Notes: a model not told the origin generated them from the sequence alone. 47,078 nucleotides of DNA from an uncultured Rhodobacterales bacterium (GCA_964594465.1 CAZQMR010000001.1:1-47078), one strand, 5' to 3'. Positions 3,387-25,710 are shown, counted from the stretch's first letter. Numbers and translations: made by a program.

Positions 3387-3414
3387 GAGCGCAACTAAAA
3401 GGGGAGGGGTATAG

Positions 3415-4170
3415 ATGTCTCTATTGGATGGAAAAATCGCAGTTGTCACGGGAGCTGCCAGTGAAAATGGTATCGGCAAGGCAATTGCTCAGCTTTTTGC
3501 AGAGCATGGGGCCCGCATTGTCATCACTGATCTCAGCGCCCAAGCCGCAGCGGCGACGGCGGCTCAACTTCCCGGTCAGGGCCATATCGGGCTTGCAGGC
3601 GATGTGACCGATCCAACGGCTTGCAACGAGGTGGCGGCCCATGTGCTTGATAAGATGGGTCGCATTGATGTGCTTGTGAACAATGCCGGCATCACCCAAC
3701 CTTTGAAGCTGATGGATATCGCACCGGAAAACTATGAGGCCGTCACAGATGTAAGCCTGCGCGGAACGCTCTATATGAGCCAATCCGTGATCCCTTCGAT
3801 GCGCGCACAAAAAAGTGGCTCAATTATCAATCTGTCTTCTGTGTCCGCTCAACGTGGTGGCGGTATTTTTGGGGGGCCGCATTATTCTGCGGCAAAGGCT
3901 GGTGTTTTGGGGCTGACCAAAGCCATGGCCCGCGAGCTGGCCCCTGACAACATTCGCTCAAATGCAATCTGTCCGGGGTTTATTTCAACTGACATCACGG
4001 CCGGGAAATTGAGCGACGAAATGCGCGCAAATGTCCTTGCGGGTATCCCGATGGGCCGCGCAGGTACTGCAACAGACGTGGCAGGATGTGCGCTGTTTCT
4101 TGCATCAAACCTGTCTGCATATTGCACCGGGACGGAAATCGACGTGAACGGCGGTTCTTTGATCCATTAA
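3415..4170 (+). CDS. Short-chain dehydrogenase/reductase (FabG-like)
   Basis: 251 aa. 'VVTGAASENGIGKAIA' Rossmann motif, 'NNAG', catalytic 'YSAAKAG', and 'PGFISTD'. Confidence 0.85.
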   Translation: MSLLDGKIAVVTGAASENGIGKAIAQLFAEHGARIVITDLSAQAAAATAAQLPGQGHIGLAGDVTDPTACNEVAAHVLDKMGRIDVLVNNAGITQPLKLMDIAPENYEAVTDVSLRGTLYMSQSVIPSMRAQKSGSIINLSSVSAQRGGGIFGGPHYSAAKAGVLGLTKAMARELAPDNIRSNAICPGFISTDITAGKLSDEMRANVLAGIPMGRAGTATDVAGCALFLASNLSAYCTGTEIDVNGGSLIH

Positions 4171-4436: not shown

Positions 4437-5441
4437 ATGCCTTTTAAATCACTGGTGGCACTCGCCGCCCTCACCTTTGCCACGTCAGCCATGGCTGATA
4501 CGGACATGCCGTTTGCGCTGGATTGGAAGTTTGAGGGGCCCTCGGCACCTTATTTCCATGCTCTGGACGCGGGCTATTTTGCAGCGTCTGATTTGAATGT
4601 GACAATCAGCGAAGGGCGTGGCTCCTTGGATGCGATCCCAAAGGTTGCCACTGGCGCATTTCCTGTAGGTTTTGCCGACATCAATTCCCTGATGCGCTTC
4701 CTTGATCAGAACCCGGGCGCGCCCGTGACTGCTGTGATGATGGTGTATGACAAGCCGCCTTTTGCGGTGGTGGGGCGAAAGTCATTGGGTGTTGCCGCGC
4801 CTGCTGATCTGGAAGGCAAAGTGCTTGGCGCACCGCCCCCGGATGGCGCGTGGGCTCAATTCCCGATCTTTGCTGCTGAAACCGGCATTGATCCAACCGC
4901 GATTAAAGTAGAGCCAGTTGGCTTTCCGACCCGTGAACCGATGCTGGCAGAAGGCAATGTTGCTGCGATTACCGGGTTTTCGTTTTCCTCTACGCTCAAT
5001 CTAAAGCGCTTGGGCGTACCGGCTGACGACATCTCGGTGCTTTTGATGGCCGATTTTGGTGTGGATCTTTATGGCAATGCGATCATCGTAAACACTGACT
5101 TTGCCAGCGCAAATCCTGATGCGATTAAGGGCTTTTTGTCAGCCATTGGCAAAGGTTGGAAGGATGCGATTGGCTCTCCTGAGACTGCGATTGCAGCCTT
5201 GATGAAGCGCAATCCGGCCGCAGATGCTGCGCTTGAGACAGAGCGCTTGCAGATGGCAATCGACGCCAATGTGCTGACTGAATTTGTGCAGGCCAATGGC
5301 ATGGGCACAGTTGATGCAGGGCGTATGGCGAGCGCGATTGAGCAAACAAAATCAGTCTATGAATTCAACTCAGCACCTGATGCGGCGCTTTATTTTGACG
5401 ACAGTTACTTGCCAACCGATGGGTCTTTGGTTCTTAAGTAA
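4437..5441 (+). CDS. ABC transporter periplasmic substrate-binding protein, NMT1/THI5-like (NitT/TauT family)
   Basis: 334 aa. Signal peptide 'MPFKSLVALAALTFATSAMA'. Followed by a cognate NitT/TauT-type ATPase and permease. Confidence 0.75.
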   Translation: MPFKSLVALAALTFATSAMADTDMPFALDWKFEGPSAPYFHALDAGYFAASDLNVTISEGRGSLDAIPKVATGAFPVGFADINSLMRFLDQNPGAPVTAVMMVYDKPPFAVVGRKSLGVAAPADLEGKVLGAPPPDGAWAQFPIFAAETGIDPTAIKVEPVGFPTREPMLAEGNVAAITGFSFSSTLNLKRLGVPADDISVLLMADFGVDLYGNAIIVNTDFASANPDAIKGFLSAIGKGWKDAIGSPETAIAALMKRNPAADAALETERLQMAIDANVLTEFVQANGMGTVDAGRMASAIEQTKSVYEFNSAPDAALYFDDSYLPTDGSLVLK

Positions 5442-5455
5442 CCCAACGACGAGAA

Positions 5456-6295
5456 TTGAACGGGCCGCCGTATCATCGGCGGCCCGCTGCTATTGGGGGT
5501 CTGAAGATCGAAAACCTCATTGATATTAAAGCTGTAACCCATGCCTATTCCACGGATAGCGGCCCACTGCCGGTGTTGGATGGTTTGGATGTATCTGTGC
5601 CAGAAGGCTCGTTTGCTGCGGTTGTTGGGCCTTCGGGCTGCGGAAAATCAACGCTGACACGCCTTGTTGCAGGGTTGCTGAAACCAGATGAAGGCGAGGT
5701 TTGGCTTAAGGGCGAACGTGTCACGGGGCCGCGCAAAACCGTGGGCATGGCCTTCCAGAACCCGGTGCTGCTGGAATGGCGCACGATCATTGATAACATC
5801 ATCCTACCCCTTGAAATCGTAGCGCCAGGCATGTCCCGCAAGAGCCGCGTGGATCGCGCGATGGAGCTTTTGGATATGGTGGGGCTGACGGGTTTTGGCG
5901 ACAAGAAACCGTCTGAGCTATCCGGGGGGATGCGTCAGCGTGCCTCCCTGTGTCGCTCGATCGTTCATAAGCCCGAAGTACTGATCATGGACGAGCCTTT
6001 CGGTGCGCTTGATGCCTTCACCCGCGAAGACCTGTGGCAAACCATGCGTGACTTGCGCCGGGCGGAGCCCTTTACCGCCGTTCTGATCACCCATGATTTG
6101 CGCGAGAGTGTGTATTTGGGAGACCAAGTGGTTGTGCTGTCAGGTCGGCCTGCCCGCACGCAATACGTTATGGACATCGATTTGCCTGAGGATCGTAGTT
6201 TGGACGTGCTTTACACGCCTAAGGTGGCGGACATGCTGAGTATTTTGCGCGACCAAATCAAAATCGCTCAGGGCCGTGACGGAGACCTTCACTGA
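5456..6295 (+). CDS. ABC transporter ATP-binding protein (NitT/TauT family)
   Basis: Walker A 'GPSGCGKST', signature 'LSGGMRQR', Walker B 'LIMDEPFGALD'. The start is uncertain: the TTG at 5456 lies inside or just upstream of the hairpin, so the real start may be downstream (for example CTG 5501). Confidence 0.8.
   Translation: MNGPPYHRRPAAIGGLKIENLIDIKAVTHAYSTDSGPLPVLDGLDVSVPEGSFAAVVGPSGCGKSTLTRLVAGLLKPDEGEVWLKGERVTGPRKTVGMAFQNPVLLEWRTIIDNIILPLEIVAPGMSRKSRVDRAMELLDMVGLTGFGDKKPSELSGGMRQRASLCRSIVHKPEVLIMDEPFGALDAFTREDLWQTMRDLRRAEPFTAVLITHDLRESVYLGDQVVVLSGRPARTQYVMDIDLPEDRSLDVLYTPKVADMLSILRDQIKIAQGRDGDLH
5462..5485 (+). promoter_or_regulatory. Intercistronic GC stem-loop after the SBP gene (no U-tract)
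   Basis: Perfect 9-bp stem GGGCCGCCG (5462-5470) / CGGCGGCCC (5477-5485) with loop TATCAT. Confidence 0.5.
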
Positions 6296-7053
6296 TGCTG
6301 CGCAAAATAGCTGTGCCATTGCTGGCAGTTTTGATTTTTCTGGGGTTATGGGAGGCGCTCGTCTGGGTGAACAATTGGCCAAATTACAAGATGGCCTCCC
6401 CTTCGGATCTGCCGCCTGCGTTTTGGAAATACAAGCATCTGTTTTTAGAAATGGGTTGGCAAACGCTCTGGCGCACTGTGGCGGGCCTGATGCTTGCGGT
6501 TCTTTTTGGCACAGCCATTGGCATCATCATTGGGTTTTCAAAGATCGCGCGGGATGCGCTTTATCCCTTGCTGGTTGGGTTTAATGCAATTCCAAAGGCC
6601 ACTCTGGTGCCGGTGATTTCACTGATTTTCATTGGGCAGCATGATTTCAACACGGTTCTTATGGCTTTCATGATCTCATTTTTTCCAATCGCGGTATCGG
6701 TTGGCATTGGTCTGTCAACGCTGGAACCTGAGTATCGCGATATCCTGCGTGCGCTGGGGGCGTCACGCTTTGCAATTTTCTGGAAGATTGCGCTCCCCAA
6801 AACGTTGCCGGAGTTTTTTGGTGCGTTGAAAGTTTCGGCAACTCTGGCGTTTATCGGAACCAATTTGGTCGAGATCGTTAGCCCGCACGGACGAGGCCTA
6901 GGTGCGCTGTTCAAATCGGGAGAAACAAATGGCGACTACCCATTGATGTTCGCCGTGCTCATAGCGTTGGCGTTTCTGGGGATCGTTTTATACTACGCGG
7001 TGATCGTATTGGAGCGGCACTTTGCGGGCTGGGCCGAGCGCGAATCCAACTGA
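6295..7053 (+). CDS. ABC transporter permease (NitT/TauT family)
   Basis: 252 aa, multi-TM. EAA-like loop 'ILRALGASRFAIFWKIALPKTLPEF'. Its ATG overlaps the upstream TGA. Confidence 0.85.
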   Translation: MLRKIAVPLLAVLIFLGLWEALVWVNNWPNYKMASPSDLPPAFWKYKHLFLEMGWQTLWRTVAGLMLAVLFGTAIGIIIGFSKIARDALYPLLVGFNAIPKATLVPVISLIFIGQHDFNTVLMAFMISFFPIAVSVGIGLSTLEPEYRDILRALGASRFAIFWKIALPKTLPEFFGALKVSATLAFIGTNLVEIVSPHGRGLGALFKSGETNGDYPLMFAVLIALAFLGIVLYYAVIVLERHFAGWAERESN

Positions 7054-7107
7054 TCGCTTCACGCTTGGATCGGCGCATTGGTGCGGGCTTAACCTATACA
7101 GTAGAAT

Positions 7108-7563
7108 TTAATTGGCGTTGTACTTTTGATCCACGTCGTCGATTGCTTGAACATTTGCGGCAGAGCGCCCCTCTGGATCAAAGGAGCTTTCGAGATATGC
7201 ATCCACGATCGTCTTGGCCAATTCTGCAGCTATCGTGCGCGCGCCGATTGTTATGATCTGAGCATTGTTTGATGTCGCGGCTTTTCCGGCTGAATATGCA
7301 TCGCTTACCAAGGCGGCTCGGATACCCGGCACTTTGTTGGCAGAAATGCAGACGCCGATGCCAGTCCCACACACGAGGATAGCGCGGTCGTAGGTTTTGT
7401 TCAGGACCCCTTGCGAAACGCGATCGGACAGATCGGCATAAAAGGCGTCCGGACCGCTTTGGGTATGCGAGATTTCGGAAACGTCGAACCGCTGGCTCAG
7501 GTAGTCAGCCAATTCGCGCGCTAGGATTTCTCCGGCGCTGTCACCCGCAACTGCAAGTTTCAT
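7108..7563 (-). CDS. rpiB: RpiB/LacA/LacB-family sugar-phosphate isomerase (candidate erythrulose-4-P/erythrose-4-P isomerase)
   Basis: ATG at 7563 preceded by AGGAG. '[14 protein letters not shown]' and '[12 protein letters not shown]'. ATGA overlap (7560-7563) with the upstream TIM-like gene. Confidence 0.85.
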
Positions 7564-8330
7564 TTCTGTCTCCTTAGGGTGTCTGTGCAAAGTCCAAGAA
7601 TTTCTAGATAACCATCAATGTTCCAAGCGGATCGCCCGATGAACAGCCCATCAATGTTTGGGCAGTTTATGAGCTCTTGGCAATTCGTTGGGTTCACCGA
7701 CCCGCCATAGAGGCAGGGGATCCGGTGGCCCAAAAGCTCTTGCGCAACTGCAATAATCTCTTCGTGTTTTTCGTCGGCGTAGTCAGAGGTTGCCGGGATA
7801 CCGCCGTCGCCGATCGCCCAGACGGGTTCGTAGGCCAGCAGCACCTGTGCATTCGGCTTGAGCGTGGAAATGCCAGACAAGGCAGCGCTAACTTGCTTGC
7901 GCAGGACTTTGCTTGCGTCTCCCGCTTCGCGTTCTTCAAGTGTTTCGCCGATGCAAATCAATGGGATCAATCCATTTCGCACGGCGGCGGCGGCCTTTAG
8001 TCCTACGGTCGTATCAGTTTCGCCAAAATGCGCTCTGCGTTCTGAATGACCCAGTTCTACGATTTCAGCGCCGCAATCCGCGACCATCAGGGGCGAAATT
8101 TCGCCGGTCCACGCCCCTTGGTCTTCCCAGTGCATGTTTTGCACCCCGACCTTGATCGACGTGTCCGACAGAATGCTTGCGACCTCGCGCACGGCCGTAA
8201 ATGGCGGTATGACGAAACGCTGAATTTTGGTGTCATCATTGCCACTCAGACGCAATCCTTGGGCAAAGGTTTGCGCCTGTGCCAATGTTTTGTTCATCTT
8301 CCAACTGGTGCCGATCCAGAAGTCTGCCAC
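7560..8330 (-). CDS. tpiA: Triosephosphate isomerase family protein (paralog; candidate tetrulose-phosphate isomerase)
   Basis: 'SWKMNK', 'LGHSERR' and 'AYEPVWAIG' catalytic motifs. The ORF extends to the TTG at 8351. GTG at 8330 (preceded by GGTGGA) gives the usual N-terminal length, so the start is uncertain. Confidence 0.8.
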
Positions 8331-8361
8331 TGAAAATTCCACCCAAGCCAATACCTATTGT

Positions 8362-8376
8362 AACTGGTATAATGAG
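8362..8376 (+). promoter_or_regulatory. Shared box copy a: AACTGGTATAATGAG (tpiA/tal divergent promoter region)
   Basis: One of six near-identical boxes found in intergenic regions. Contains the extended -10-like TGGTATAAT, oriented toward tal. Confidence 0.55.
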
Positions 8377-8447
8377 TTAGTATGGGGTTGAAAACCCGAA
8401 AACTTTCGTGGATTTAGGAACCAACCGGCCTAACCTTGGGGACCAAA

Positions 8448-9392
8448 ATGGCAAGTGCATTAGAACAATTGCGGTCAATGACCGTTGTCGTGGCAGACAC
8501 CGGCGACGTTGAGGCCGTAAAGACTTATAAACCCGTCGATTGCACAACCAATCCATCGCTGGTTTTGGCTGCACTGTCAGACCCGGCGTCTGAAGAACTG
8601 GTCGTGACGGAAATTGAATCGGGTCGAAAAACAAGCAGATCTGCAGAGCAGGTCTGTGCATCGCTCACAGTTGCAGCGGGTGCCCGGCTTGCCGCTTTGA
8701 TCCCTGGCCGCGTTTCCACGGAGGTTGATGCCTGTTTGTCGTTTGACAAAGACGCCTCTGTCGCACGTGCCCGTGACATTGTGGCAGATTATGCCCAGCG
8801 AGGGATCGACAAGGATCGCATCCTTATCAAACTTGCCTCCACATGGGAGGGCATTCGTGCTGCGGAAATTCTTCAAGACGAAGGCGTTGACTGTAACCTG
8901 ACATTGCTCTTCTCATCCGCGCAGGCTGTAGCTTGCGCCGATGCTGGTGCTTTTCTGATTTCGCCCTTTGTGGGTCGGATCACGGATTGGTACAAAAAGG
9001 CTGAAGGGCGCGACAGCTACGCCCCGGATGATGACCCGGGCGTAAAGTCTGTGCGCGGCATTTACGACTACTACAAATCCAATGGGATTAAGACTGTCGT
9101 GATGGGGGCGTCCTTCCGCAGCACCGATCAGATAAAGGCCCTAGCGGGCTGCGATAACCTGACGATTGCGCCAAAACTGTTGGATGCTTTGGAGAGCGAT
9201 CAATCGGAATTGCCGCGAATTCTGTCACCTGAAGGGGCAACAGGCGTACCAGCGATTGCGATGGATGAAGCCACGTTCCGCTGGCAGATGAACGCCGATG
9301 CTATGGCAACAGAGAAACTGGCGGAAGGGATCCGCAATTTCGACGCTGATCATCAAAAGCTAATCAAGATCATCGCAGAAAAGATGGCCTAG
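8448..9392 (+). CDS. tal: Transaldolase (TalB-type)
   Basis: 'DTGD', 'TTNPSL', Schiff-base lysine context '[11 protein letters not shown]', and 'ISPFVGRI'. ATG at 8448 inside ORF 8436-9392. Confidence 0.9.
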
Positions 9393-9405
9393 AGCTTAGG
9401 TCGGC

Positions 9406-10683
9406 TTAGCCCCATTTATCCAGAGCGGCTTTTAGTTCTGGATGATGGTTCGCGTAGTCGGAAAGCTCGACATCAGCTTCGGCCGCTTCCCAAGCTTGGC
9501 GGATGGCGCGCACGCCAGCTGCGGCGCCCATTGGGTGCCCGTGAACACCACCGCCGCAAAGGTACATAAGATCAAGCGTTCGGCCTGTACGTTGATAGGT
9601 TTCGGGCGCTTGCCCTCCCCATTGTCCTGATCCAACCACTGGCAAAGGTTTGTCATCGTCGGAAAAGATCGGTTCAGACACTGCTTGGAAAGATCGCACG
9701 AAGCTTTCGTCGGGTTCCCAGTATTTCGCCTGAATGCCATTGATCTGGAATTGGTCAACGCCCAGCAGCCGCCAGATTTTTTGGTACGCACGGAATTCCA
9801 TGCCAAGGCCGGGATGCCTTGTGAGAATATCCCACCCGTTGCGATGCGCATGAAGGCAAAGCCCAGATCGCTTGCGCAAAAATGACATTCCACCGTAGCC
9901 GATGGAGTTGATGTTCAAAACTGCGGCGTTGCCGCCCGCTTCGAGCACCACATCATGGTTGCGCATCATGGTGTCGGGGTCGGCGGAGGATATGCCAAAC
10001 GCATACATCACCCGCTTGCCGGTTTTTTGTTCATGTGCGTCCACTACCGGCATGATGGCTTTGACGCGATCTTTGAGCGAGGAATATCCCGGGCTCATCA
10101 ACTTTTCATCATCCTTGATGAAATCGACACCGGCCTCGCATAGCTGTGCGATCACGGTTGCGGTTTCATCGGGCAAAAGACCAAGTGATGGTTTGATGAT
10201 TGAGCCCACCATCGGGCCCTGTGTGACCCCCATCAATTCACGTGACCCGTTGATGCCAAATTGCGGTCCGGGATGGCACGACCATGCCTGAGGCAGGCTG
10301 ATATCCATCACGCGCACGCCGGTCAGCCCCCGCACGGCATAAACACCCCCAATAGCGATGGTGACGAGGGCCGCGATGTCTGTGCCAACTGCCTCCAGCG
10401 GGTAGGTGATAACAACATCTGCCCGATTGTAAGGCCCGTGACCATTTGGATCAGGAAAAGACGGCACGGTTGTTGGTTCCAAGGTTTGGATATCAATCAC
10501 ACGGGCCGCGCAGCGCGCTTGAACCGCAGCGGTTTCGCCCGGCAATTCAGTGAAGGTCCCGGTAGATTGGTCGGACGCGATTTTGGCGGCAAGGGCCGCG
10601 ATGTCGCCCGACGTCTCAAGCCTGTAAGTGACGAGGATTTCGGTGTTGCTCAAGGCTTTCTTCCGCTTTGTTTGGCCCAGCAA
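9406..10683 (-). CDS. RuBisCO-like protein (form IV RLP; RuBisCO large-subunit family, non-carboxylase)
   Basis: 'IIKPSLGL', 'GVDFIKDDEKL', 'LHAHRNGW' and 'CGGGVHGHPMG' align by eye with RuBisCO large-subunit active-site segments. Last gene of the ABC operon. The start is uncertain: TTG 10683, or TTG 10653 preceded by GGAAGA. Confidence 0.85.
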   Translation of the reverse strand: MLGQTKRKKALSNTEILVTYRLETSGDIAALAAKIASDQSTGTFTELPGETAAVQARCAARVIDIQTLEPTTVPSFPDPNGHGPYNRADVVITYPLEAVGTDIAALVTIAIGGVYAVRGLTGVRVMDISLPQAWSCHPGPQFGINGSRELMGVTQGPMVGSIIKPSLGLLPDETATVIAQLCEAGVDFIKDDEKLMSPGYSSLKDRVKAIMPVVDAHEQKTGKRVMYAFGISSADPDTMMRNHDVVLEAGGNAAVLNINSIGYGGMSFLRKRSGLCLHAHRNGWDILTRHPGLGMEFRAYQKIWRLLGVDQFQINGIQAKYWEPDESFVRSFQAVSEPIFSDDDKPLPVVGSGQWGGQAPETYQRTGRTLDLMYLCGGGVHGHPMGAAAGVRAIRQAWEAAEADVELSDYANHHPELKAALDKWG

Positions 10684-10760
10684 AGCGGTGTCGCTTTGGG
10701 CTCTCTATGCAGATGTGATTACTGTTAGACCGGAGTGGCTGTCAAACGCTCTGAGGACTG

Positions 10761-11804
10761 TCAGAGCCGCTCGCCGTCCTCACCAAACAGATGCGCTGCG
10801 CTCATATCCGGGGACAGAACAACCGTATCGCCAGGGTTGGGATTGAAGCGTTCTTTGAAAACAGCAAGAACTTGTTGGCCGTTAAAGTCGGCGGTGACCT
10901 GCGTTTCTGAGCCAGTTGGTTCAACTACTGAGACTTCGACGCTGATGCCAGTTTCGGCAGGCAAAAGATGCTCAGGCCGAATGCCAAGGGTTGCAGGCCC
11001 GTTGGAGTAGGTCGAACTGTGCAAGGTCAGGCTGTTTTCACCGTCGATCACAAACTGATCTCCCTCGATCACGCCATTAAAGAAGTTCATGGCGGGCGAC
11101 CCAATAAACCCGGCGACAAATTTGTTCTGGGGGTTATCGTAAAGTTCTAGCGGTGTGCCGAGCTGCATGATCACACCCTCCTGCATTACGACAATGACGT
11201 CCGCCATAGTCATCGCTTCTATCTGATCATGCGTAACATAGACGGTCGTTGTTTTTAGGCGCTGATGCAGCGCCTTTAGCTCAGTGCGCATCTGCACGCG
11301 CAATTTAGCATCCAGATTTGACAAAGGTTCGTCGAATAGAAAGACCGATGCGTCACGCACAATTGCGCGGCCCATTGCGACACGCTGCCTTTGCCCACCG
11401 GACAGTGCTTTGGGGTAGCGGTCGAGCAACTGATCAAGGCCCAGAATCTCGGCCGCTTCGTTCACTCGGTCGGTGATGGTCTGGCGATTTTCTTTGCGCA
11501 GTCGAAGAGAAAACGCCATGTTTTCGCGCACGGTCAGGTGCGGGTACAATGCATAGTTTTGGAAAACCATTGCAATGTCGCGATCTTTGGGCGCGACGTC
11601 ATTGACGATTGTGTCGCCAATCAATATCTCGCCGGCGCTTATGTCCTCAAGTCCTGCAATCGTCCTTAGCAATGTCGACTTGCCGCATCCCGAGGGGCCG
11701 ACAAGAACGACGAAATCACCATCTTTGATATCAAAGTCGATCCCGAAAATCACCGGGTCGGAGGCATAAGCTTTCCAAACCTCACGAATGGCTATGGAGG
11801 TCAT
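10761..11804 (-). CDS. Carbohydrate ABC transporter ATP-binding protein (MalK/UgpC-like)
   Basis: ATG at 11804. 'GPSGCGKST', 'LSGGQRQR' and 'FLFDEPLSNLD', plus a C-terminal MalK-type regulatory domain. Confidence 0.9.
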   Translation of the reverse strand: MTSIAIREVWKAYASDPVIFGIDFDIKDGDFVVLVGPSGCGKSTLLRTIAGLEDISAGEILIGDTIVNDVAPKDRDIAMVFQNYALYPHLTVRENMAFSLRLRKENRQTITDRVNEAAEILGLDQLLDRYPKALSGGQRQRVAMGRAIVRDASVFLFDEPLSNLDAKLRVQMRTELKALHQRLKTTTVYVTHDQIEAMTMADVIVVMQEGVIMQLGTPLELYDNPQNKFVAGFIGSPAMNFFNGVIEGDQFVIDGENSLTLHSSTYSNGPATLGIRPEHLLPAETGISVEVSVVEPTGSETQVTADFNGQQVLAVFKERFNPNPGDTVVLSPDMSAAHLFGEDGERL

Positions 11805-11868
11805 CGTTATTCCCTTTTGTTGATTAGAATGCGGGCGTCGGTCATCCCGACGCCCGCACACCCCACCA

Positions 11869-13197
11869 TCACTTAGACATTTCTGCCTTAGCGTCGGCTA
11901 CCCGTTCACTCAAAAGCATGGCTGCTTCTGATACTGCTTTTGCTGGATCGGCATCTTCATAGGCAATCTTTTGGATCGCACGTGCGTAGAGGTTTGAGTT
12001 CCAAAGCACGCTTCTAAAGGGATTGACCTTGCCGGTTGCATTCAGCTTACACGTTGCTGTGTCCAATCCACCTGCATGGAGGATCTCGCTATAGCCATCG
12101 ACGGCTGCTGGATAAACCGTGTCAAACAACAGGTCACCATAAGCTGCAACTGTTGGCGCGTCCGAGCCTTTCAGGGCATCCATCGCGGCACCTGTTGCTG
12201 GTGGGTAGAGAAGCGGGCTCATACCTGTAAGATCAGCGGCATTGTTGGGCGAGAAGATATACTCAATCCATTTTTTGCCAGTGTCCAAAGTGGTCGAGTT
12301 GTTGAACAAGGCCACATAACGACCGCCAGTTTGTGTGGCTTTCATTTTGTTCGCTGTCACCGGCGCGATGCCGATATTCTCAACCATTGCAGGGTTCTGG
12401 CGCATCATCAAATCAAGCGCGTGCCAGTGAATGACCATAGCTGCACGGCCAGACCAGAAGCTTTCTGGTGGCTCGTTGAACGCCCAAGCTGCCGCATCAG
12501 GTGCGGAGTATTTTAGCAAGTCTGCATAGTGAGTTGCTGCTTCAACCGCATTGGGGTGATCAAGGATCACATTGCCGTCTGCGTCAAAGAAGTCGTGACA
12601 GTTTTGCCAAAGCATTGTGCCAGCCATGATGGTGGTCATGCGGTTCTCACCGCCTGCAAGTGCAATGCCGATCACATCATCGGAATGCAGTTTCTTAGCG
12701 GCTGCAGTGACTTCTTCCCAAGTAGAAGGTGGGGCGATGCCAGCTGCCTCGAACATGTCCTTTCGGTAGAACAATTGTGGAGATGTTGCAGCTTGGTTGA
12801 TCGCGTAGACTTTGTCGTCAACGATCACAAGGCGGTTGTTGAGGAATGAGTCCCGTCCGCCAAGGGCTTCGACGACGTCATCCAGTGGTGCAAGCAAACC
12901 CTCAACAGCAAGACGTGCCGCGGTGCCTGGATCTGAGTGAACAACGTCAAGCGGCGCACCGGCTTGAACGTAGGTCGCAATCCTCTGGTTGATGACACCA
13001 GCAGGGGCGCTTTCAAGGATGACGTCAGTTCCGGGGTTGGATTCCAGGAACCCTTTGACCCAGTTGCGTTGAATGCGAACAACGGCAGGGTCGGTTTCTT
13101 GGCTTAGGTAGCGAACGACCTCAATCCCTTGAGCATTCGCGCTCATCCCCCCGAATAGACTAAGGGCAGCAGCGCACATGGTTAATTTGTAGTTCAT
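11869..13197 (-). CDS. Carbohydrate ABC transporter substrate-binding protein (family 1 / CUT1)
   Basis: 442 aa. Signal peptide 'MNYKLTMCAAALSLFGGMSANA'. Sits within a permease/ATPase operon. Confidence 0.85.
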   Translation of the reverse strand: MNYKLTMCAAALSLFGGMSANAQGIEVVRYLSQETDPAVVRIQRNWVKGFLESNPGTDVILESAPAGVINQRIATYVQAGAPLDVVHSDPGTAARLAVEGLLAPLDDVVEALGGRDSFLNNRLVIVDDKVYAINQAATSPQLFYRKDMFEAAGIAPPSTWEEVTAAAKKLHSDDVIGIALAGGENRMTTIMAGTMLWQNCHDFFDADGNVILDHPNAVEAATHYADLLKYSAPDAAAWAFNEPPESFWSGRAAMVIHWHALDLMMRQNPAMVENIGIAPVTANKMKATQTGGRYVALFNNSTTLDTGKKWIEYIFSPNNAADLTGMSPLLYPPATGAAMDALKGSDAPTVAAYGDLLFDTVYPAAVDGYSEILHAGGLDTATCKLNATGKVNPFRSVLWNSNLYARAIQKIAYEDADPAKAVSEAAMLLSERVADAKAEMSK

Positions 13198-13287
13198 AAG
13201 TTCCTCCCAAAAAAAGATTTTGGCCGCTGTTGTTCTTGTTCTGCGCCCTTTGCGGCCAAGAGGGCGTTGTATCTCGACGTTACTGGT

Positions 13288-14181
13288 TCACCCTTTCACC
13301 GCTCCCGCACCAAGGCCGGACACCATCTGACGTGCGGCGAAAGCGAATAGGAAAAGGACGGGCACTGTCGCCAAAACGCCAGCTGCGTTGACGAGGCCCC
13401 ACGAATAGACCGAAGTTTCCAAAATCAAGGACGCAATGCCCAAAGAAACGGTCCGTTTTGTTTCGTCTGAGATCAGCACGAGCGAATAGAGCAGCTCGTT
13501 CCAGACGACGACAAATGTAAAGACAAAGGATGCGACGATCCCTGGCCAAGCCTGAGGCACGATGACCTTTCGGAATGCCTGAAACCGGGTACAGCCGTCG
13601 ATCATTGCTGCTTCTTCCAAGGCTTGTGGGATCGCCTCAATGTAGGGGCGCAGTATCCACAAGGAGAATGGCAGAGTGATCGTCAGATAGGTGATGCCCA
13701 AAGCCCAGAGGCTGTTTAGCATGTCCAGATTGTACCAAATCCGAAAGAACGGCAGCGCCAACAGGATCGGCGGCAGCATGTAGATTAGCAAAATTCCAAA
13801 AGCAAACGCACGCGCGGCGATGAACTCGAACCGTGTAATTGAAAAGACGGTGACTAAGCTGATCCCTACACCCACAAAGCAGGATATTCCGGCCACAAGG
13901 AACGTGTTCAGGAAGTACCGTGGGAAGCTCGTGAAATCCCAAAGTTCGACATAGTGTTCGAATGTGGGTTCTTTCGCGAACACTTTTGGCGGTCTTTCAA
14001 ACAGCTCTACGTTCGGTTTGAAACTTGACGCCAGCATCCAGAACAGCGGTACCAAGACGATCATAAGGACGGCCAGCGCACAGAGCATCAGGAGGGCCTG
14101 CTCGAAACGGCGCTTGGCCGCTGCCCTTTTTGCTCGCGGACTGATGGCAAGCTTAGGCATTTCTTTGCGCACGCTAGTCAT
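13288..14181 (-). CDS. Carbohydrate ABC transporter permease (MalG-like)
   Basis: ATG at 14181 forms an ATGA overlap with the upstream ORF stop. EAA loop 'EAAMIDGCTRFQAFRKVIVPQAWPG'. Confidence 0.85.
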   Translation of the reverse strand: MTSVRKEMPKLAISPRAKRAAAKRRFEQALLMLCALAVLMIVLVPLFWMLASSFKPNVELFERPPKVFAKEPTFEHYVELWDFTSFPRYFLNTFLVAGISCFVGVGISLVTVFSITRFEFIAARAFAFGILLIYMLPPILLALPFFRIWYNLDMLNSLWALGITYLTITLPFSLWILRPYIEAIPQALEEAAMIDGCTRFQAFRKVIVPQAWPGIVASFVFTFVVVWNELLYSLVLISDETKRTVSLGIASLILETSVYSWGLVNAAGVLATVPVLFLFAFAARQMVSGLGAGAVKG

Positions 14182-15052
14182 CGGAATCGCTCCTGCGTGC
14201 GCTCGTATAATCGCCAATAAATGACGGACATGATCAAAAGAACGAAGAAGACGATCACCGCAAGCGCTGCTCCTCGACCGAGGCTAAAGTCACCAAAGAC
14301 AAATCTATAGATATAGAGCGGCAGGGTTTCGGTTCGGCCAATTGGACCACCTTGGGTTAGCAAGAAAACAACCTCGAAGTTATTGAAATTCCATATGGTT
14401 CTGAGCATCCCGACGACCAGCATGATTGGCAGAAGGGACGGCAATGTGATCTTTGTGAGTTTTTGCCAGGCCGTTGCTCCATCGACCGAAGCCGCCTCGT
14501 AAAGCTGACGGTCAATGGTTTGCAGTTGCGCAAGGAAAACGATGACCATGAACGGGAAGTTCTTCCACGCATTGACCACGATCACGCCAACCATTGCGAA
14601 ATCTAGCGATCCGAATGGCGAGGCGGGGATTGGCAGTTCGCTCGCTCGGATCCAATAATTCAGTATTCCGGTTGTGTCCGAAAACATGAATTTCCATGTC
14701 ATCGCGCGACGACATAGGGCACCAGATACGAAAACAGCATGACCCCGCGGATCGGATTTCGCAGCGGAAACTCACGATTAAGGAGGAGGGCGATCGGTAA
14801 GCCAAGACCCATTTGCAGGAAAAGCGACCCAAACGTGAAAACGAACGTGTTCTTTACGGAGCGCGGGAACCCTTCGTGGCTTACGACGGCTTCAAAATTC
14901 TTCAGCCCTGCGAAGGTTGCTTCTGTACTGTAAAGGCTCTGCTGCTGGAACGAAAGCGAGACGACCTGGAAGATCGGATAGATCGTCAGCCCGAGAACCA
15001 GAACAATCAGCGGCAATAGCAAAAGCAGACCGATTTTTCGGTCCCGAGACAT
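14178..15052 (-). pseudogene. MalF-like carbohydrate ABC permease split by a frameshift at ~14699-14702
   Basis: The N-terminal fragment (ORF 14699-15148, likely ATG 15052 or 15079) ends '...YLVPYVVAR*'. The C-terminal fragment (14178-14702) begins 'MTWKFMFSDTTGILNYW' and carries the EAA loop 'EAASVDGATAWQKLTKITLP'. Joined, they make one ~290-aa permease. The junction reads CGATGACATGG. Confidence 0.65.
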
Positions 15053-15158
15053 TCCTCGGCTTCGGCTCGCCACCGGCATTGGCCGAGCGCGCGCTTTTTC
15101 CGCTGCTGTTAGCACCACTTTCCCTCTCCAAGTTACATACTGGTACATTCATGAGGTT

Positions 15159-15170
15159 ATTATACCACTT
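15159..15170 (-). promoter_or_regulatory. Shared box copy b2: AAGTGGTATAAT (oriented toward the ABC/RLP operon)
   Basis: The plus strand reads ATTATACCACTT. A weaker half-copy, ACTGGTA, lies at 15139-15145. Confidence 0.5.
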
Positions 15171-15192
15171 TGCAGCGTTTGAACAAAATTGC

Positions 15193-15206
15193 AACTGGTA
15201 TAATGG
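15193..15206 (+). promoter_or_regulatory. Shared box copy b3: AACTGGTATAATGG (oriented toward gntR-1)
   Basis: Exact 12-mer match to copies a and c. Confidence 0.55.
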
Positions 15207-15336
15207 CTATGTAACATGATGAACCAATTTGCAGGTTATCGAGCTATCCAAGCCTATGGGGTTTGGGTTTCGATTGTGCTGGATGGCAGCCCAAACTAGG
15301 GTTCCTAGGAAACCAGCAAGCCTGTACGAGAGTTTT

Positions 15337-16056
15337 ATGAGAAAACAGCAAGCCAAAGAGCAGATCCACCGGCAAAGGCTTTCAGAGCTCGTATTTGATA
15401 AACTGTGGAACATGATTGTTTCCGGCGAACTCACACCCGGGGATCTCTTGCCATCAGAACGCGCGTTGATGGAACGATTCGGCGTTGGTCGCCCGGCCGC
15501 ACGCGAAGCGCTTCAAATGTTGGCAAACAAGGGTCTTATCACGATCTCCCATGGGGAACGCAGCCGCGTAAACGAATTGAACGCCGGCATGGCCTTTGAT
15601 CAGGTCAACGACATCGCAAAACTCCTTTTGTCGTCGGACCCTTCAAACCTGACGCATCTGATGCAAATCCGGAAAATTCTGGAATTTGGAACAGCGCGTT
15701 TGGCTGCACGAAACTGCACTCGCGCGGATGCAGAGGATCTTCGGCGTATCAATGCTGAACAACGGGAAAACCTGGGGAATATCGAGTTGTTCATTCAGGC
15801 TGACATGGCGTTTCATGTGCGTCTTGCCCAAATTTCCAACAACCCTCTTTTGATCGAAATCACCAAAGCTATGCTATCTTGGTTGTTCGACTACTACCGC
15901 CCGCTGCTGTATTGGTCGGGCCATGAAGACACCACGCTGTTGGAGCATAAAAAGCTGGCTGATGTGCTTGAAACAAACGATGAGGCTGCCGCTTTTGAAG
16001 CGATGCGAGAGCATCTAAACCGGTCCGAGCCATTGTATTCTTTCGAGCCAACATAG
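15337..16056 (+). CDS. GntR-family transcriptional regulator, FadR subfamily (paralog 1)
   Basis: ATG at 15337 gives 239 aa. wHTH 'LPSERALMERFGVGRPAAREALQMLANKGLITISHGERSRV' plus a helical FCD-type C-terminal domain. Confidence 0.85.
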   Translation: MRKQQAKEQIHRQRLSELVFDKLWNMIVSGELTPGDLLPSERALMERFGVGRPAAREALQMLANKGLITISHGERSRVNELNAGMAFDQVNDIAKLLLSSDPSNLTHLMQIRKILEFGTARLAARNCTRADAEDLRRINAEQRENLGNIELFIQADMAFHVRLAQISNNPLLIEITKAMLSWLFDYYRPLLYWSGHEDTTLLEHKKLADVLETNDEAAAFEAMREHLNRSEPLYSFEPT

Positions 16057-16096
16057 GAAGAACTCTGGCATCTGCTTTTCTGTTCACATCCACTTA

Positions 16097-16125
16097 GGCC
16101 GCGATGGGTTTCATCGCGGCCTTTT
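16097..16125 (+). terminator. Rho-independent terminator after gntR-1
   Basis: Stem GGCCGCGATG (16097-16106), loop GGTTT, stem CATCGCGGCC (16112-16121), then TTTT. Confidence 0.75.
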
Positions 16126-16229
16126 CAACTTTGGTAGCGAGACTGAGGATGAGTTTGAGCGTTTTATCTGAACATATCAGGAGGCCAATCACTTTAGGAT
16201 TGCAGCCTTGGGAGATAACTTATATAGTT

Positions 16230-16241
16230 ATTATACCAGTT
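16230..16241 (-). promoter_or_regulatory. Shared box copy c: AACTGGTATAAT (15 nt upstream of the oxidoreductase ATG, inverted orientation)
   Basis: The plus strand reads ATTATACCAGTT. This is the only copy pointing away from the downstream gene, which argues for an operator rather than only a -10 element. Confidence 0.5.
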
Positions 16242-16255
16242 TTAAGGAATGTAAG

Positions 16256-17083
16256 ATGACAAAGATCGCTCTTTTTGGCGCCGGCGGGAAAATGGGCGTG
16301 CGCAGCGGGAAAAATCTTCTCGAAACGGATTTCGAAGTTGCCCATGTAGAAATTTCCGAGGCGGGGCAGCAACGCGTCAAAGATGAACTTGGGAAGGACT
16401 GTGTGCCGACCGAGGACGCTTTGAAAGGCGCAGATGTCATTGTTTTGGCCGTCCCCGACACCGCAATCAAGGCGGTTTCCCACGCGATCATTGATCAAGT
16501 CGAGCCGGGTGCGATGCTGATTTGTTTGGATGCGGCTGGGCCTTTCGCGGGTCATTTGCCCAAGCGCGATGACGTGACGTATTTCATCTCACATCCTTGC
16601 CATCCTCCCATCTTCAATGACGAGAACACGCCTGAGGGTCGCAACGATCACTTTGGGGGCGTTGCCGCAAAACAAGGTATCGTCAACGCGCTGATGCAGG
16701 GACCAGCTGAGCATTATGAGCTTGGCGAAGCGGTTGGCAAAGCGATTTACGCGCCCGTTGTTCGCTCGCACCGTGTTACTGTGGAACAGATGGCGCTTCT
16801 TGAGCCGGGTCTTTCTGAAACAGTCTGTGCCTCACTGCTTTATGTCATGAAAGAAGCAATAGATGAGGTTGTCGCGCGTGGCGTTCCTGAAGAAGCTGCC
16901 CGCGATTTTCTTCTGGGGCACATGAACATCCTTGCGGCGGTCACCTTTGGCCACATCGACGGTGTCTTTTCCGATGCATGCTACAAGGCCATCGAGAATG
17001 GTCTGCCGATCTTGATGAAAGACGATTGGAAGCGGGTTTTCGAACCTGAAGAGATTGCGGCCAGTATCGAAAGAATTACCTAA
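16256..17083 (+). CDS. NAD(P)-binding Rossmann-fold oxidoreductase of uncertain specificity (prephenate dehydrogenase / 6PGDH-C-like architecture)
   Basis: ATG at 16256 preceded by AAGGAA. 'KIALFGAGGKMG' dinucleotide motif and 'VIVLAVPD'. 275 aa. Monocistronic, between a terminator and a convergent operon. Confidence 0.6.
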   Translation: MTKIALFGAGGKMGVRSGKNLLETDFEVAHVEISEAGQQRVKDELGKDCVPTEDALKGADVIVLAVPDTAIKAVSHAIIDQVEPGAMLICLDAAGPFAGHLPKRDDVTYFISHPCHPPIFNDENTPEGRNDHFGGVAAKQGIVNALMQGPAEHYELGEAVGKAIYAPVVRSHRVTVEQMALLEPGLSETVCASLLYVMKEAIDEVVARGVPEEAARDFLLGHMNILAAVTFGHIDGVFSDACYKAIENGLPILMKDDWKRVFEPEEIAASIERIT

Positions 17084-18212: not shown

Positions 18213-18215
18213 GAT

Positions 18216-21467: not shown

Positions 21468-23360
21468 TCAATTTGGTGCAGTTTCCATTTCGATGAAGGC
21501 CACTGAGAAGGCCGACAAGCTGAGCTTTTCGGTCTTTGTCTGCGCTGCGTTCGCGAGCCAATCGGGTGACGCCGTTGCGGCATCGAAAGATTGGGCGTCA
21601 AGAATTGTGACGCTAGCCGCTTGCCCCAGCAGAATTTCCTTCGTTGTATCGGTCGTGTTCGCCATCATGATCCGCGCCGCCCCGGCGATCAAAGCACCGT
21701 ATCCCGAAACGCCATCGCCAATTCCCGCAATCGAAAGGCGAGGGTGCCCGGCCATCAGACATGCCTCGCGCACAACGTGGAACAGCGGGTAAACCGCGCG
21801 CCTGGCCCCGTCATACCCAGCTTGCGGATAGTCATTTGGCTCATAACAAAGCCCAAAGGGCCCGACCGGAGCGCCAAGGCAGATCGCTTCAACATTGCTC
21901 TCATAGGTCGCCGCCAGGACCCCCACTGCGAAGGCGGATCCAAACAGACCGCGATGACGTGGTTCGATCTTTGCCATCGTGCGGCGCACCTGCGCGGGGT
22001 TTTGAGCAACTGCCGCCCCGTAAGGGTTGGACCGCATCCCAATGCTGGATAACCCAAGGCGATAGGGGAGACCCTTTGCCATTGCGTCCGTACTGGAAAA
22101 AATCTGTGGCAGAGCCTCAAGCGTTTCCAGAACGGACATGTCATCGCCGGCATGGACAAGCGGCGTCAGGCTGTGCGTAACGTAGTCACATTTGGAGACG
22201 TCTGGCCGATATCGGTTCATCTCGGTAAAATTTGTCAGCATCCCGCCACCGATCATGGACTTGGGAAAGGCTTGTCGAACTGCATCAAGGATGTCGTTTG
22301 GCGCAGCGCCGTCCGGCCATGGCCCGACCGGCTGATGGCTACCAAGATAGGCTTCAGGAAGGGCGATAACCCGCCTTGGCACAATGCCGTGATTTTCAAG
22401 CGCCGTTGCCAGTTCTTGAAGGTCGGATTCTGCACGTGTGGCGGCAGGAAGGACGATTTCTAAATCGATAATTTCCCAACCACGCAGGAAGTCTGCCAGT
22501 TTATCGATCCTATCCAAGTTCGGCGTTGTTCGCAGTAAGACATGCGAAAACCCGCTTAGGGCGATGTCAGTCTTGGGCAACCAATCGGCTTCAAGCGCAA
22601 GTCCGACGTCGATCGCGTTCTCTTTGGTTTGCGCAACGTGCAGAGCGGTTTTTACTGCACCAGCATCTGACGAAACAGCGTCGCCATCACAGGTTATGCG
22701 AACTGATTGTTTCGTGGGCTGTGAAATTTCGTAGGTAAAGGGATAGACCAATGGCACACAGTAAGTTTTGTAAGATGCGTCCGACCAGTTTCTTTGGTCT
22801 TCCATCTCAAAAACTTCGCCGCCAAAGACGATGGCTACACCTTGTCCGCCCAATTCGTACTTCAGTTCTGATATGTCTTTGACAGGCTGGTCGGGCTGAA
22901 TGTGAAGTGGAAAGCGCGTGTTTTCCCTGGTTCCGTTCGAATGCGTTACAGCGAGCGGAGACCCTGCAACGCCTTTGATTGGATGCAAAACGGTAAAGCC
23001 AGCTCGATTGGTTGCAAACGTACCGTTATTGGGCGTCATCGTCAGCTCCGCAACAATAACGCCTTTGGAAGAAGCGTGGATGTGCAGGTCACACGTCAGT
23101 CTGCCGCCGCCAACAGCGAACTTCAGTCCAGCCTCGAAATCATGGGTGGTTTGGGACCATTCATCGACAATCTCCACCGGATAAGTGCCCCAATTTTCAT
23201 CTCGTATTGGCCACGCCAACGCACGCACCAATTCGGTCCCATTCCATGAGATGCGCCGCAAGCCCTCTTGTGAATAAAAAAACGAAAGTGGACCGGTCGT
23301 CACCCTCCGCAGTGCAGGCAGGGACTCGCCAGTTCCATAGAGTTTCTCAAGAGCGTTCAT
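21468..23360 (-). CDS. Conserved-looking protein of unknown function (~630 aa); first gene of the second CUT1 ABC operon
   Basis: Long, uninterrupted ORF with coding-like composition. ATG at 23360 (TTG at 23369 is an alternative). I recognise no catalytic motif. There is no signal peptide and no TM segment. Confidence 0.7.
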   Translation of the reverse strand: MNALEKLYGTGESLPALRRVTTGPLSFFYSQEGLRRISWNGTELVRALAWPIRDENWGTYPVEIVDEWSQTTHDFEAGLKFAVGGGRLTCDLHIHASSKGVIVAELTMTPNNGTFATNRAGFTVLHPIKGVAGSPLAVTHSNGTRENTRFPLHIQPDQPVKDISELKYELGGQGVAIVFGGEVFEMEDQRNWSDASYKTYCVPLVYPFTYEISQPTKQSVRITCDGDAVSSDAGAVKTALHVAQTKENAIDVGLALEADWLPKTDIALSGFSHVLLRTTPNLDRIDKLADFLRGWEIIDLEIVLPAATRAESDLQELATALENHGIVPRRVIALPEAYLGSHQPVGPWPDGAAPNDILDAVRQAFPKSMIGGGMLTNFTEMNRYRPDVSKCDYVTHSLTPLVHAGDDMSVLETLEALPQIFSSTDAMAKGLPYRLGLSSIGMRSNPYGAAVAQNPAQVRRTMAKIEPRHRGLFGSAFAVGVLAATYESNVEAICLGAPVGPFGLCYEPNDYPQAGYDGARRAVYPLFHVVREACLMAGHPRLSIAGIGDGVSGYGALIAGAARIMMANTTDTTKEILLGQAASVTILDAQSFDAATASPDWLANAAQTKTEKLSLSAFSVAFIEMETAPN

Positions 23361-23402
23361 TTTATTCAATCACCGAACCCACGCAACATCGTACGTAACA
23401 TA

Positions 23403-24215: not shown

Positions 24216-24315
24216 TCATTCCATTTTTTTCGACCAAATCTCAAGGTATCGGATTATAAGTCAACTGAATTGATCTTCTCTGACGTTGACCTTAACCAAA
24301 GCCAAGAGTAGTAGA

Positions 24316-24330
24316 TACTGGTATGATGAG
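24316..24330 (+). promoter_or_regulatory. Shared box copy e: TACTGGTATGATGAG (13 nt upstream of the kinase ATG)
   Basis: One mismatch in the TATAAT core relative to copies a and d. Confidence 0.5.
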
Positions 24331-24342
24331 GTGATATATAAC

Positions 24343-25710
24343 ATGAATTCCCCTGCTGCCAACAAATTCCGTCGACCTTTGGTCGCTTGGCTAGGAGATG
24401 ATTTCACTGGAGCCGCCGCCGTTATGGAGGTTTTGAGCTTCGCCGGACTGCCGTCAATCTTGTACTTATCCACACCTGACGCAAAGGCTCTAGAAGAAAA
24501 CAAGGACTGCGTGGGGATTGGTATCGCTACTCTCGCGCGGTCAAAATCACCGGATTGGATGGAAGACAACCTTCCAGCGGTTTTTGAGTTTCTTGATCAG
24601 ACGGGAGCCGAACTGGTGCACTATAAAATCTGCACCACGCTCGACTCTTCACCATTGGTTGGATCGATCGGCAAAGCCATTGATCTGGGCCTAAAACATT
24701 TTGGAGAAGCCGCAGTTCCGGTGGTGACAGCAGCCCCGCAAATGAGACGGTATCAAGCCTTTGGGTCTTTGTTTTGCTCAGCTGCCAACGGAGTATACCG
24801 GCTCGATCGCCACCCGGTCATGGCCCATCATCCAGTGACACCGATGGATGAAGCGGATGTCGCCCGCCACTTAGCAAAGCAAACGCAAAGGCCGACGGGC
24901 TGCATAGATCTGGAGGATCTTTCAGAGCAGCGCGCGGCTCAGAAGCTGGAAAGTGCCGCGCAAGTCTGGACCCTTGATCTGACAGCCGCCGAGCAACAAG
25001 CAGAAGTGGGTCGCCTGCTTTGGGAGCGGCGTAAAGACAGCCGCTTTGTTGTGGGGTCTCAGGGTATTGAATACACGTTGGTCTCTTATCTGCGCGAGCA
25101 GGGCATAATCGAGTCAATCGCCCCTCCACCTGGTCTTGGGCGAGACAACAATTTTGCAGTCGTATCCGGCTCGGTATCTCCAACCAGCGCTGCGCAAATT
25201 GCTTGGGCACGCGAAAACGGTTTTGCCGCAATCCGGCTTAACGCGGCGCAGCTTTTATCTGGCGATGCCGCAATGGTGGAGGATCAGGCGTTGTCCGAAG
25301 CAAAGGCTGCTCTTGCAATAGGCAAGCCGCCCATCATCTTTACTGCGGAGGGCCCCGACGACCCAACCCTGGACGAAGTCAATAAAGCCGCGTCAGGCGA
25401 CATGGATCATGCAAATGACCTGATCGGCCAAGCGCTTGGTAGGATCATGCGGGCTTTGGTTATTGATCTTGATCTGCGACGCATCGCCGTATCGGGCGGT
25501 GATACATCTGGCCGGGTCTGCAAGGAATTGGGCATCTATGCATTGGTCGCGGTTTCTCCGACCATCCCTGGGGCTGCAATATGCCGAGCACGTGCGAACG
25601 GCAAATTAGACGGTCTCGAAATTGCACTGAAAGGCGGCCAGATGGGTTCGCCCGATTATTTTGGCTGGGTGCGCGATGGAGGCGGGGTTTCGTCGCAGCG
25701 ATCAGCTTAG
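24343..25710 (+). CDS. DUF1537 'four-carbon acid sugar kinase' family protein
   Basis: ATG at 24343 in ORF 24286-25710. N-terminal 'VAWLGDDFTGAAAV' and C-terminal nucleotide-binding 'IAVSGGDTSGRV' are motifs characteristic of the OtnK/DtnK/OiaK family. Confidence 0.8.
   Translation: MNSPAANKFRRPLVAWLGDDFTGAAAVMEVLSFAGLPSILYLSTPDAKALEENKDCVGIGIATLARSKSPDWMEDNLPAVFEFLDQTGAELVHYKICTTLDSSPLVGSIGKAIDLGLKHFGEAAVPVVTAAPQMRRYQAFGSLFCSAANGVYRLDRHPVMAHHPVTPMDEADVARHLAKQTQRPTGCIDLEDLSEQRAAQKLESAAQVWTLDLTAAEQQAEVGRLLWERRKDSRFVVGSQGIEYTLVSYLREQGIIESIAPPPGLGRDNNFAVVSGSVSPTSAAQIAWARENGFAAIRLNAAQLLSGDAAMVEDQALSEAKAALAIGKPPIIFTAEGPDDPTLDEVNKAASGDMDHANDLIGQALGRIMRALVIDLDLRRIAVSGGDTSGRVCKELGIYALVAVSPTIPGAAICRARANGKLDGLEIALKGGQMGSPDYFGWVRDGGGVSSQRSA

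Follow-up and report, generated by a model that had tools for sequence, protein, structure and literature searches.

A RuBisCO-like protein encoded behind a family-1 ABC cassette in an uncultured Rhodobacterales bacterium is very probably OiaX, the decarboxylase of D-apiose/D-apionate breakdown

The closest described system is the breakdown of D-apiose and D-apionate, one enzyme of which, OiaX, is known from work on Agrobacterium radiobacter K84 (Carter et al. 2018, Nat Chem Biol 14:696, cited by PMC6302742 and PMC12994016). According to the same two papers and PMC11747546, D-apionate is degraded by ApnO, OiaK and OiaX, and the RuBisCO-like proteins (RLPs) of A. radiobacter K84 and X. autotrophicus carry out decarboxylation and transcarboxylation/hydrolysis of 3-oxo-isoapionate-4-phosphate. 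In most relatives, oiaX is found directly behind oiaK or divergent from a CUT2-type ABC system with a Gfo/Idh/MocA dehydrogenase, whereas in the window, by which we mean the whole stretch of 47,078 nt analysed here, the RLP gene stands behind a family-1 ABC cassette and, unlike that of most relatives, adjoins neither oiaK nor apnO. In other respects the window resembles the characterised OiaX systems, both in the RLP itself (curated model, length and invariant active site) and in its company of ApnO, an OiaK-type kinase, a NanR-type regulator, a TIM/RpiB pair and a transaldolase. The genes concerned are the following.

7108..7590, minus strand: RpiB-family D-erythrulose-4-phosphate isomerase (DerI) candidate (NCBIfam NF051858)
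7560..8351, minus strand: TIM-family isomerase, putative L-erythrulose-1-phosphate isomerase of LerI/EryH type (Pfam TIM)
8436..9392, plus strand, convergent with oiaX: transaldolase (TIGR00874, 432.6 bits against a cut-off of 396)
9406..10653, minus strand: RLP gene, in all probability oiaX (NCBIfam NF042437; Pfam RuBisCO_large and RuBisCO_large_N; 77-86% identity to relatives)
15229..16056, plus strand: GntR/FCD (NanR-like) regulator (Pfam GntR and FCD; NCBIfam NanR subfamily, 260.2 bits against a cut-off of 260)
16208..17083, plus strand: apnO, D-apionate oxidoisomerase candidate (PDB 5T57, 413.6 bits, E = 3.8e-123)
21468..23369, minus strand: distant homologue of ApnL, D-apionate lactonase (NCBIfam ApnL, 404.8 bits, far under the cut-off of 750)
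24286..25710, plus strand: OiaK-type four-carbon acid sugar kinase of the DUF1537 family (NCBIfam OiaK; Pfam SBD_N and NBD_C)

The reading frame at 9406-10683 is open on the minus strand as far as an upstream TTG at 10683, which would give 425 aa. Gene call P0001 and the lengths of orthologues point to the TTG at 10653, preceded by GGAAG, as the likely start, giving a protein of 415 aa; orthologues measure about 415 aa, and the ORF of the window is intact and equal to them in length. A first-pass annotation of this DNA had placed an RLP gene at 9406-10683, and every motif it quoted (AGVDFIKDDEKL, LHAHRNG, GGGVHGHP, KPSLGL and GVDQFQING) is present in the translation of that interval; the strand, which it left unstated, is the minus strand. 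Compared with four orthologues, oiaX has a pN/pS of 0.12-0.18, with synonymous sites saturated, which indicates that the gene is under purifying selection.

Searching curated models, we found that the window protein scores 779.2 bits on the NCBIfam equivalog for OiaX (NF042437; cut-off 700), aligned over model positions 1-412 of 412, and that Pfam RuBisCO_large (260 bits) and RuBisCO_large_N (35.8 bits) recover the two-domain fold of the large subunit. [quoted passage not shown] The first-pass annotation had regarded clade and reaction as open; these two results decide both, and its list of candidate reactions did contain the correct one, a decarboxylase acting on a phosphorylated 3-oxo acid sugar. 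The RLP is accounted for without a new hypothesis, since standard curated models name it OiaX. On this reading the enzyme is an ordinary OiaX, encoded in an apiose/apionate gene region that has been rearranged, and only the position of its gene, behind an unrelated and partly broken importer operon, is unusual.

The family is widespread. In a large protein collection, a search at E <= 1e-30 recovered 2472 homologues; the top 120 are 77-86% identical to the window protein, and many of these carry the name OiaX (NCBI, JGI). A relative is encoded in 517 genome stretches among species-representative genomes, mostly of marine Rhodobacterales and Hyphomicrobiales, and in 307 plasmid or chromid records of PLSDB, several of them annotated oiaX, including Sinorhizobium and Rhizobium orthologues that are about 67% identical. 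The closest solved structure is PDB 3NWR (324 bits, E = 1e-95).

For the catalytic residues, we took spinach RbcL, which is identical over 475 residues to PDB 8RUC/1IR1, as the reference and mapped positions both by BLASTP (24% identity) and in a 204-sequence MAFFT alignment, with equal results. The window protein keeps K175, K201, D203, E204, H292, H294, R295, K334 and G403-405, where K201, D203 and E204 are K180, D182 and E183 in the numbering of the 415-aa protein. Replaced are K177S, H325Q and H327Q and, beyond what had been reported before, E60D, W66F, N123G, T173I, H298W and S379G; in the 415-aa numbering, positions 123, 177, 325 and 327 are G103, S156, Q301 and Q303. The earlier comparison by eye agrees with both alignments: the change from KPKLGL to KPSLGL, with loss of the second Lys, is K177S; the loss of both His between GDHIHSGT and GVDQFQING is H325Q plus H327Q; and the retained K-D-E, HAHR and GGGVHGHP align with K201/D203/E204, H294/R295 and G403/G404. 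The description of a non-carboxylating RLP with an intact metal/carbamate triad was likewise sound.

Form I-III RuBisCO has in common with the window protein the two-domain fold, the carbamate Lys with its Asp/Glu metal site, H294, R295, K334 and the GGG phosphate loop. On these features one could read the gene as coding for a genuine CO2-fixing RuBisCO (form II/III-like) or for a methionine-salvage enolase/isomerase RLP, but the probability of either is practically nil. In place of the full carboxylase set K177, H327, N123, T173, E60 and S379, the protein has S, Q, G, I, D and G. It misses the cut-off of the type III RuBisCO model by far (227 against 497 bits), and the same is true for form II (124 against 489) and for the two MtnW (DK-MTP-1-P enolase) models, NF007095 (164.6 against 409) and TIGR03332 (120.3 against 513.6 bits). 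In addition, cbbS, prk, cbbR-type and methionine-salvage genes are absent from the large ORFs of the 47-kb window, all of which are assigned to other families, as the first-pass annotation had said of cbbS, prk and cbbR. In contrast to the RuBisCO forms, the OiaX of the window has neither a small subunit nor a prk gene beside it and would decarboxylate its substrate, a monophosphate.

Conservation was assessed in 200 OiaX-clade sequences that are 69-100% identical to the window protein. D60, F66, I173, K175, D203, E204, H294, R295, W298, Q325, Q327 and K334 occur in all 200, and G123 and K201 in 199 each. Position 177 is S in 187 sequences and A in 13, and position 379 varies between C (164) and G (36), with G in the window protein, which at every active-site column compared except 379 has the commonest residue of the clade. 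On this alignment, the window protein falls well inside the decarboxylase clade, and the altered catalytic residues are a conserved signature of a characterised decarboxylase family and not a local oddity.

The pattern D60, G123, S/A177, W298, Q325, Q327 and K334 is that of the window protein, and most of these columns differ from the clade of 3NWR, a Paraburkholderia fungorum structure. That clade, represented by 120 sequences, contains one member (P0314) labelled OiaT by its NCBI record, and on this one record name its identification as OiaT is tentative. OiaT, a 3-oxo-isoapionate-4-phosphate transcarboxylase/hydrolase yielding 3-phosphoglycerate and glycolate, belongs to the same superfamily as OiaX and acts on the same substrate; K175, K201, D203, E204, H294, R295 and K334 are kept in both, the 3NWR clade also has H292, F66 and I173 in common with the window protein, and the closest structure comes from the clade with the OiaT-named member. 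It is nevertheless most improbable that the window protein is OiaT. It is merely 39-43% identical to the 3NWR clade and parts from it at near-invariant columns (D against E at 60, G against N at 123, S against N at 177, Q against H at 325 and at 327), so that of the 3NWR pattern E60, N123, N177, H325, H327 and S379 none is present, the window having D, G, S, Q, Q and G. The OiaX cut-off is passed, and the TIM-like and RpiB-like isomerases near the gene would be required only for a decarboxylase product. Two members of the 3NWR clade that were checked lie in LacI-TRAP-glyoxalase-RLP-kinase clusters with neither an apnO-type (PGDH_C) gene nor TIM/RpiB, a further reason for caution about the OiaT label of that clade. 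The OiaX and 3NWR clades separate cleanly at positions 60, 123, 177, 325, 327 and 379, which are therefore usable for sorting RLPs of this group.

The substrate of OiaX, a beta-keto acid, resembles the carboxylated intermediate of RuBisCO, in which K177, H327 and N123 serve CO2 addition and the later hydration and cleavage steps. By analogy with the characterised homologue, we infer decarboxylation chemistry for the OiaX of the window, drawing on papers that cite the original work and on the general chemistry of RuBisCO. A carbamylated Lys (K180, the K201 equivalent), together with D182 and E183, would hold Mg2+, and the metal would polarise the substrate at its 3-oxo group; CO2 would be lost and the Mg-stabilised enediolate then protonated, releasing L-erythrulose-1-phosphate. 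Such a step would amount to the RuBisCO carboxylation half-reaction run in reverse, without hydration and C-C cleavage, and the loss of K177, H327 and N123 is consistent with a reaction that ends at decarboxylation.

The neighbouring genes would supply most of a route from D-apionate. In a first step, the product of 16208-17083, whose match PDB 5T57 was identified as the D-apionate oxidoisomerase ApnO in a classification paper (bioRxiv 10.1101/2020.08.24.261826), would convert D-apionate to 3-oxo-isoapionate, which the OiaK-type kinase (24286-25710) would phosphorylate in a second. OiaK is the best NCBIfam model for this kinase, at 447 bits under a cut-off of 700; because the kinase of the canonical Martelella apnO/oiaX cluster scores similarly (467.5 bits), the sub-threshold value is no mark against the role. 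OiaX would then decarboxylate the 3-oxo-isoapionate phosphate, its product would be turned into D-erythrose-4-phosphate by the TIM-like (7560-8351) and RpiB-like (7108-7590) isomerases, and transaldolase and transketolase would pass D-erythrose-4-phosphate into the pentose phosphate pathway.

NCBIfam names the 7560-8351 product only as triose-phosphate isomerase, and its role as an L-erythrulose-1-phosphate isomerase is one that we infer from context. The RpiB-type protein reaches 225.9 bits on NF051858, slightly under the cut-off of 240. The two genes overlap, and in this the window is like the erythritol pathway of Brucella and Rhizobium with its EryH (TIM) and EryI (RpiB). A pair of the EryH/EryI type would take L-erythrulose-1-phosphate to D-erythrose-4-phosphate; EryH and EryI serve erythritol, whereas the pair of the window presumably serves the apiose route.

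A Gfo/Idh/MocA apiose dehydrogenase, as in the Martelella cluster, was not found in the window, and because of this the pathway may start from apionate or the lactone of apionate instead of apiose; alternatively, one of the SDR genes may code for the apiose dehydrogenase, or that enzyme may be encoded elsewhere. The ApnL-like protein, about 35% identical to the lactonase candidates of related clusters, is encoded by the gene that heads a second family-1 (SBP_bac_1) ABC operon at 17169-21601. Along the window, 5.5 kb separate oiaX from apnO and 13.6 kb separate it from oiaK. The NanR-like regulator at 15229-16056 is divergent from the ABC-oiaX run and lies upstream of apnO. A second NanR-like regulator lies beyond apnO, near the second ABC operon.

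We compared this arrangement with 80 related oiaX genome loci. Near oiaX, oiaK is found in 72 of the 80, apnO in 63 (median identity to the window homologue 66%), a NanR-type GntR gene in about 60, an ApnL-like gene in 39 and the TIM and RpiB pair in 21. The solute-binding protein of the window's own cassette (11869-13197) is near oiaX in none of the 80, and its permeases have no match of at least 45% identity there. Judged by these gene neighbourhoods, it is apnO, oiaK, the NanR-type GntR regulator and TIM/RpiB that are conserved as partners of oiaX, not the ABC cassette. For transport, the relatives typically have a CUT2-type (ribose-type) ABC system with a Gfo/Idh/MocA dehydrogenase, or a TRAP system, or none. 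A CUT2-type ABC system of the window, at 26628-30184, is a doubtful candidate for the canonical apiose transporter, since its CUT2-type counterparts in related clusters share just 32-42% identity with it. The closest relative has the same order of oiaX, transaldolase and TIM-RpiB, apart from a single RraA-like gene that separates oiaX from the transaldolase gene. A megablast of 7000-17200 against plasmids returned no close DNA relative, only matches of about 70% to TIM genes. Upstream of oiaX, no palindromic operator recurs among the 80 loci, any one motif being present in at most 7.

The cassette upstream of oiaX is made up as follows.

10654..10760, minus strand: malK-oiaX spacer, 107 nt
10761..11861, minus strand: MalK/UgpC-type ABC ATPase (Pfam ABC_tran, OB_MalK and TOBE_2; NCBIfam UgpC subfamily, 485 bits)
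11869..13197, minus strand: family-1 (SBP_bac_1) solute-binding protein, SBP1 (Pfam SBP_bac_1)
13288..14217, minus strand: ABC permease of MalG/UgpE type (Pfam BPD_transp_1, NCBIfam)
14178..15148, minus strand: ABC permease of MalF/UgpA type, split (NCBIfam UgpA profile)

The same-strand order permease-permease-SBP-ATPase, with the RLP gene last behind the MalK-like ATPase gene, is thus as first described. The gap, given there as 77 nt, is 107 nt from the malK stop at 10761 to the TTG at 10653, because the start is at 10653 and not at 10683. A scan of 9200-11000, limited for promoters to the sigma-70 consensus, revealed no terminator-like or sigma-70-like site in the spacer, and an Rfam scan of 7000-17500, spacer included, gave no match; oiaX may still have a promoter of its own outside the sigma-70 consensus. 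Read-through from the ABC promoter into oiaX is plausible on this layout, and oiaX would be co-transcribed with the ABC operon, under the putative control of the divergent NanR-like GntR regulator.

The first permease gene is broken. Its two ORFs, 14699-15148 and 14178-14702, match positions 2-121 and 125-290 of the UgpA profile, and tblastn with an intact 313-aa permease orthologue places the frame switch at ...LVPYVVA|AMTWKF..., where the window reads GCG CG ATG and orthologues read GCN GCN ATG; the 1-nt deletion leaves the two ORFs overlapping by ATGA. An assembly error seems less likely, as an independent Logan contig of run X1 (depth 18.5), which may however come from the same reads, has no indel relative to the window. 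An importer with a frameshifted permease may be impaired. For the SBP we found 74 relatives, with only remote ones in the PDB; orthologues that are 84-87% identical sit in self-contained permease-permease-SBP-ATPase cassettes among unrelated neighbours. One such orthologue belongs to the same assembly as the closest OiaX relative, on a different contig.

From the operon placement, it had been proposed that the RLP acts on the imported compound or a close derivative. That argument is weak, because the cassette is absent at the 80 related loci, stands free elsewhere and has a broken permease. A stronger form of it would be an OiaX paralogue recruited to another substrate, a phosphorylated 3-oxo acid sugar delivered by the upstream family-1 importer. 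Such a recruitment would suit a gene that is last in a same-strand ABC run, across a 107-nt gap without a terminator-like site, in an arrangement seen at none of the 80 loci and hence suggestive of a recent local rearrangement. We consider it highly improbable, since the protein is 77-86% identical to orthologues from canonical apnO-oiaK-oiaX clusters with its near-invariant active-site columns unchanged, the gene is under apparent purifying selection, the window contains apnO, oiaK and the isomerases, and the cassette has the free-standing orthologues and the 1-nt deletion described above. With OiaX as the preferred identity, the placement of oiaX behind the ABC operon is real but local, and it carries little functional information.

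A further possibility, doubtful as it is, leaves the enzyme as OiaX and concerns the transporter: the cassette at 10761-15148 might have been captured at a site with the NanR-type regulator/apnO pair on one side and oiaX on the other, and so have joined the apiose/apionate regulon. Around the cassette, the GC profile gives no sign of foreign DNA. If it was captured, the ligand of the SBP family would be D-apionate, an apioside or another branched acid sugar related to them, which would mean a new transporter specificity and a new pathway entry point in a plant- or alga-associated marine alphaproteobacterium.

Whatever the history of the cassette, the window documents, on a replicon of repABC type from a plant/alga metagenome, a nearly complete candidate route for D-apionate. 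A RepA partitioning gene of repABC type lies at the window start, and the window sequence was found in plant and algae metagenome DNA runs only, an origin that fits an apiose-rich source.

[quoted passage not shown]

1222-4170 and 30302-35404, plus strand: two distinct gene pairs for split transketolases
4437-7053, plus strand: NMT1/THI5-like binding protein, ABC ATPase and permease (nitrate/sulfonate/taurine-type system)
14178-15148, minus strand: permease gene (MalF/UgpA type) in the ABC cassette, with a 1-nt deletion at junction 14699-14702
17169-23369, minus strand: second family-1 (SBP_bac_1) ABC operon with an ApnL-like head gene

At the deletion site the window reads GCG CG ATG, versus GCN GCN ATG in orthologues, and the loss of this nucleotide splits the permease gene into two ORFs of 149 and 174 aa, the stop of one overlapping the start of the other (ATGA). 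The split gene may be a pseudogene, or its halves may be produced via translational coupling.

Besides an ATPase gene and two permease genes, the second family-1 operon has an SBP ORF of unusual length (up to 535 aa). Its head gene encodes a 633-aa protein in which no Pfam domain was found, a remote homologue of the D-apionate lactonase ApnL (405 bits against a cut-off of 750). Systems loosely resembling this operon sit beside oiaX at two related genome loci, L001 and L061.

In each split transketolase, the N-terminal and C-terminal halves are encoded by neighbouring genes. An SDR gene follows the first pair; the second is followed by genes for an FGGY kinase (glycerol-kinase-like), for a DeoR/SorC regulator and for an SDR. 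At three other related loci (L013, L022 and L026), oiaX is adjoined by TktN/TktC/SDR homologues with 74-79% identity. The two gene pairs of the window might be part of another tetrose, pentulose or apiose-related route. The NMT1/THI5-like system has the transketolase/SDR genes on one side and the isomerase pair on the other.

The sister RLP group around PDB 3NWR has a different gene neighbourhood at two loci:

L088, 6355-12563: LacI-TRAP-glyoxalase-RLP-DUF1537 kinase cluster
L089, 6398-12717: LacI-TRAP-glyoxalase-RLP-DUF1537 kinase cluster

No apnO-type (PGDH_C) gene was found in either cluster. One member of the clade is labelled OiaT, and for most the annotation goes no further than 'RuBisCO large subunit family protein'; these RLPs may act on a substrate other than 3-oxo-isoapionate-4-phosphate.

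The window also holds genes of other kinds:

11-1186, minus strand: RepA partitioning ATPase, repABC type (TIGR03453, 644 bits)
35466-45671: polyketide synthase region including upstream genes
38223-45671: type I polyketide synthase, 2482 aa, KS-AT-DH-MT-ER-KR-ACP

The contig is probably a piece of an alphaproteobacterial plasmid or chromid, and the runs containing the window sequence are plant and algae metagenomes only. A possible reading of the region 35466-45671 is a lipid or polyketide cluster without relation to the sugar genes. Genes for an OlsE-like fatty-acid hydroxylase and for a FemAB-family protein are located upstream of the synthase.
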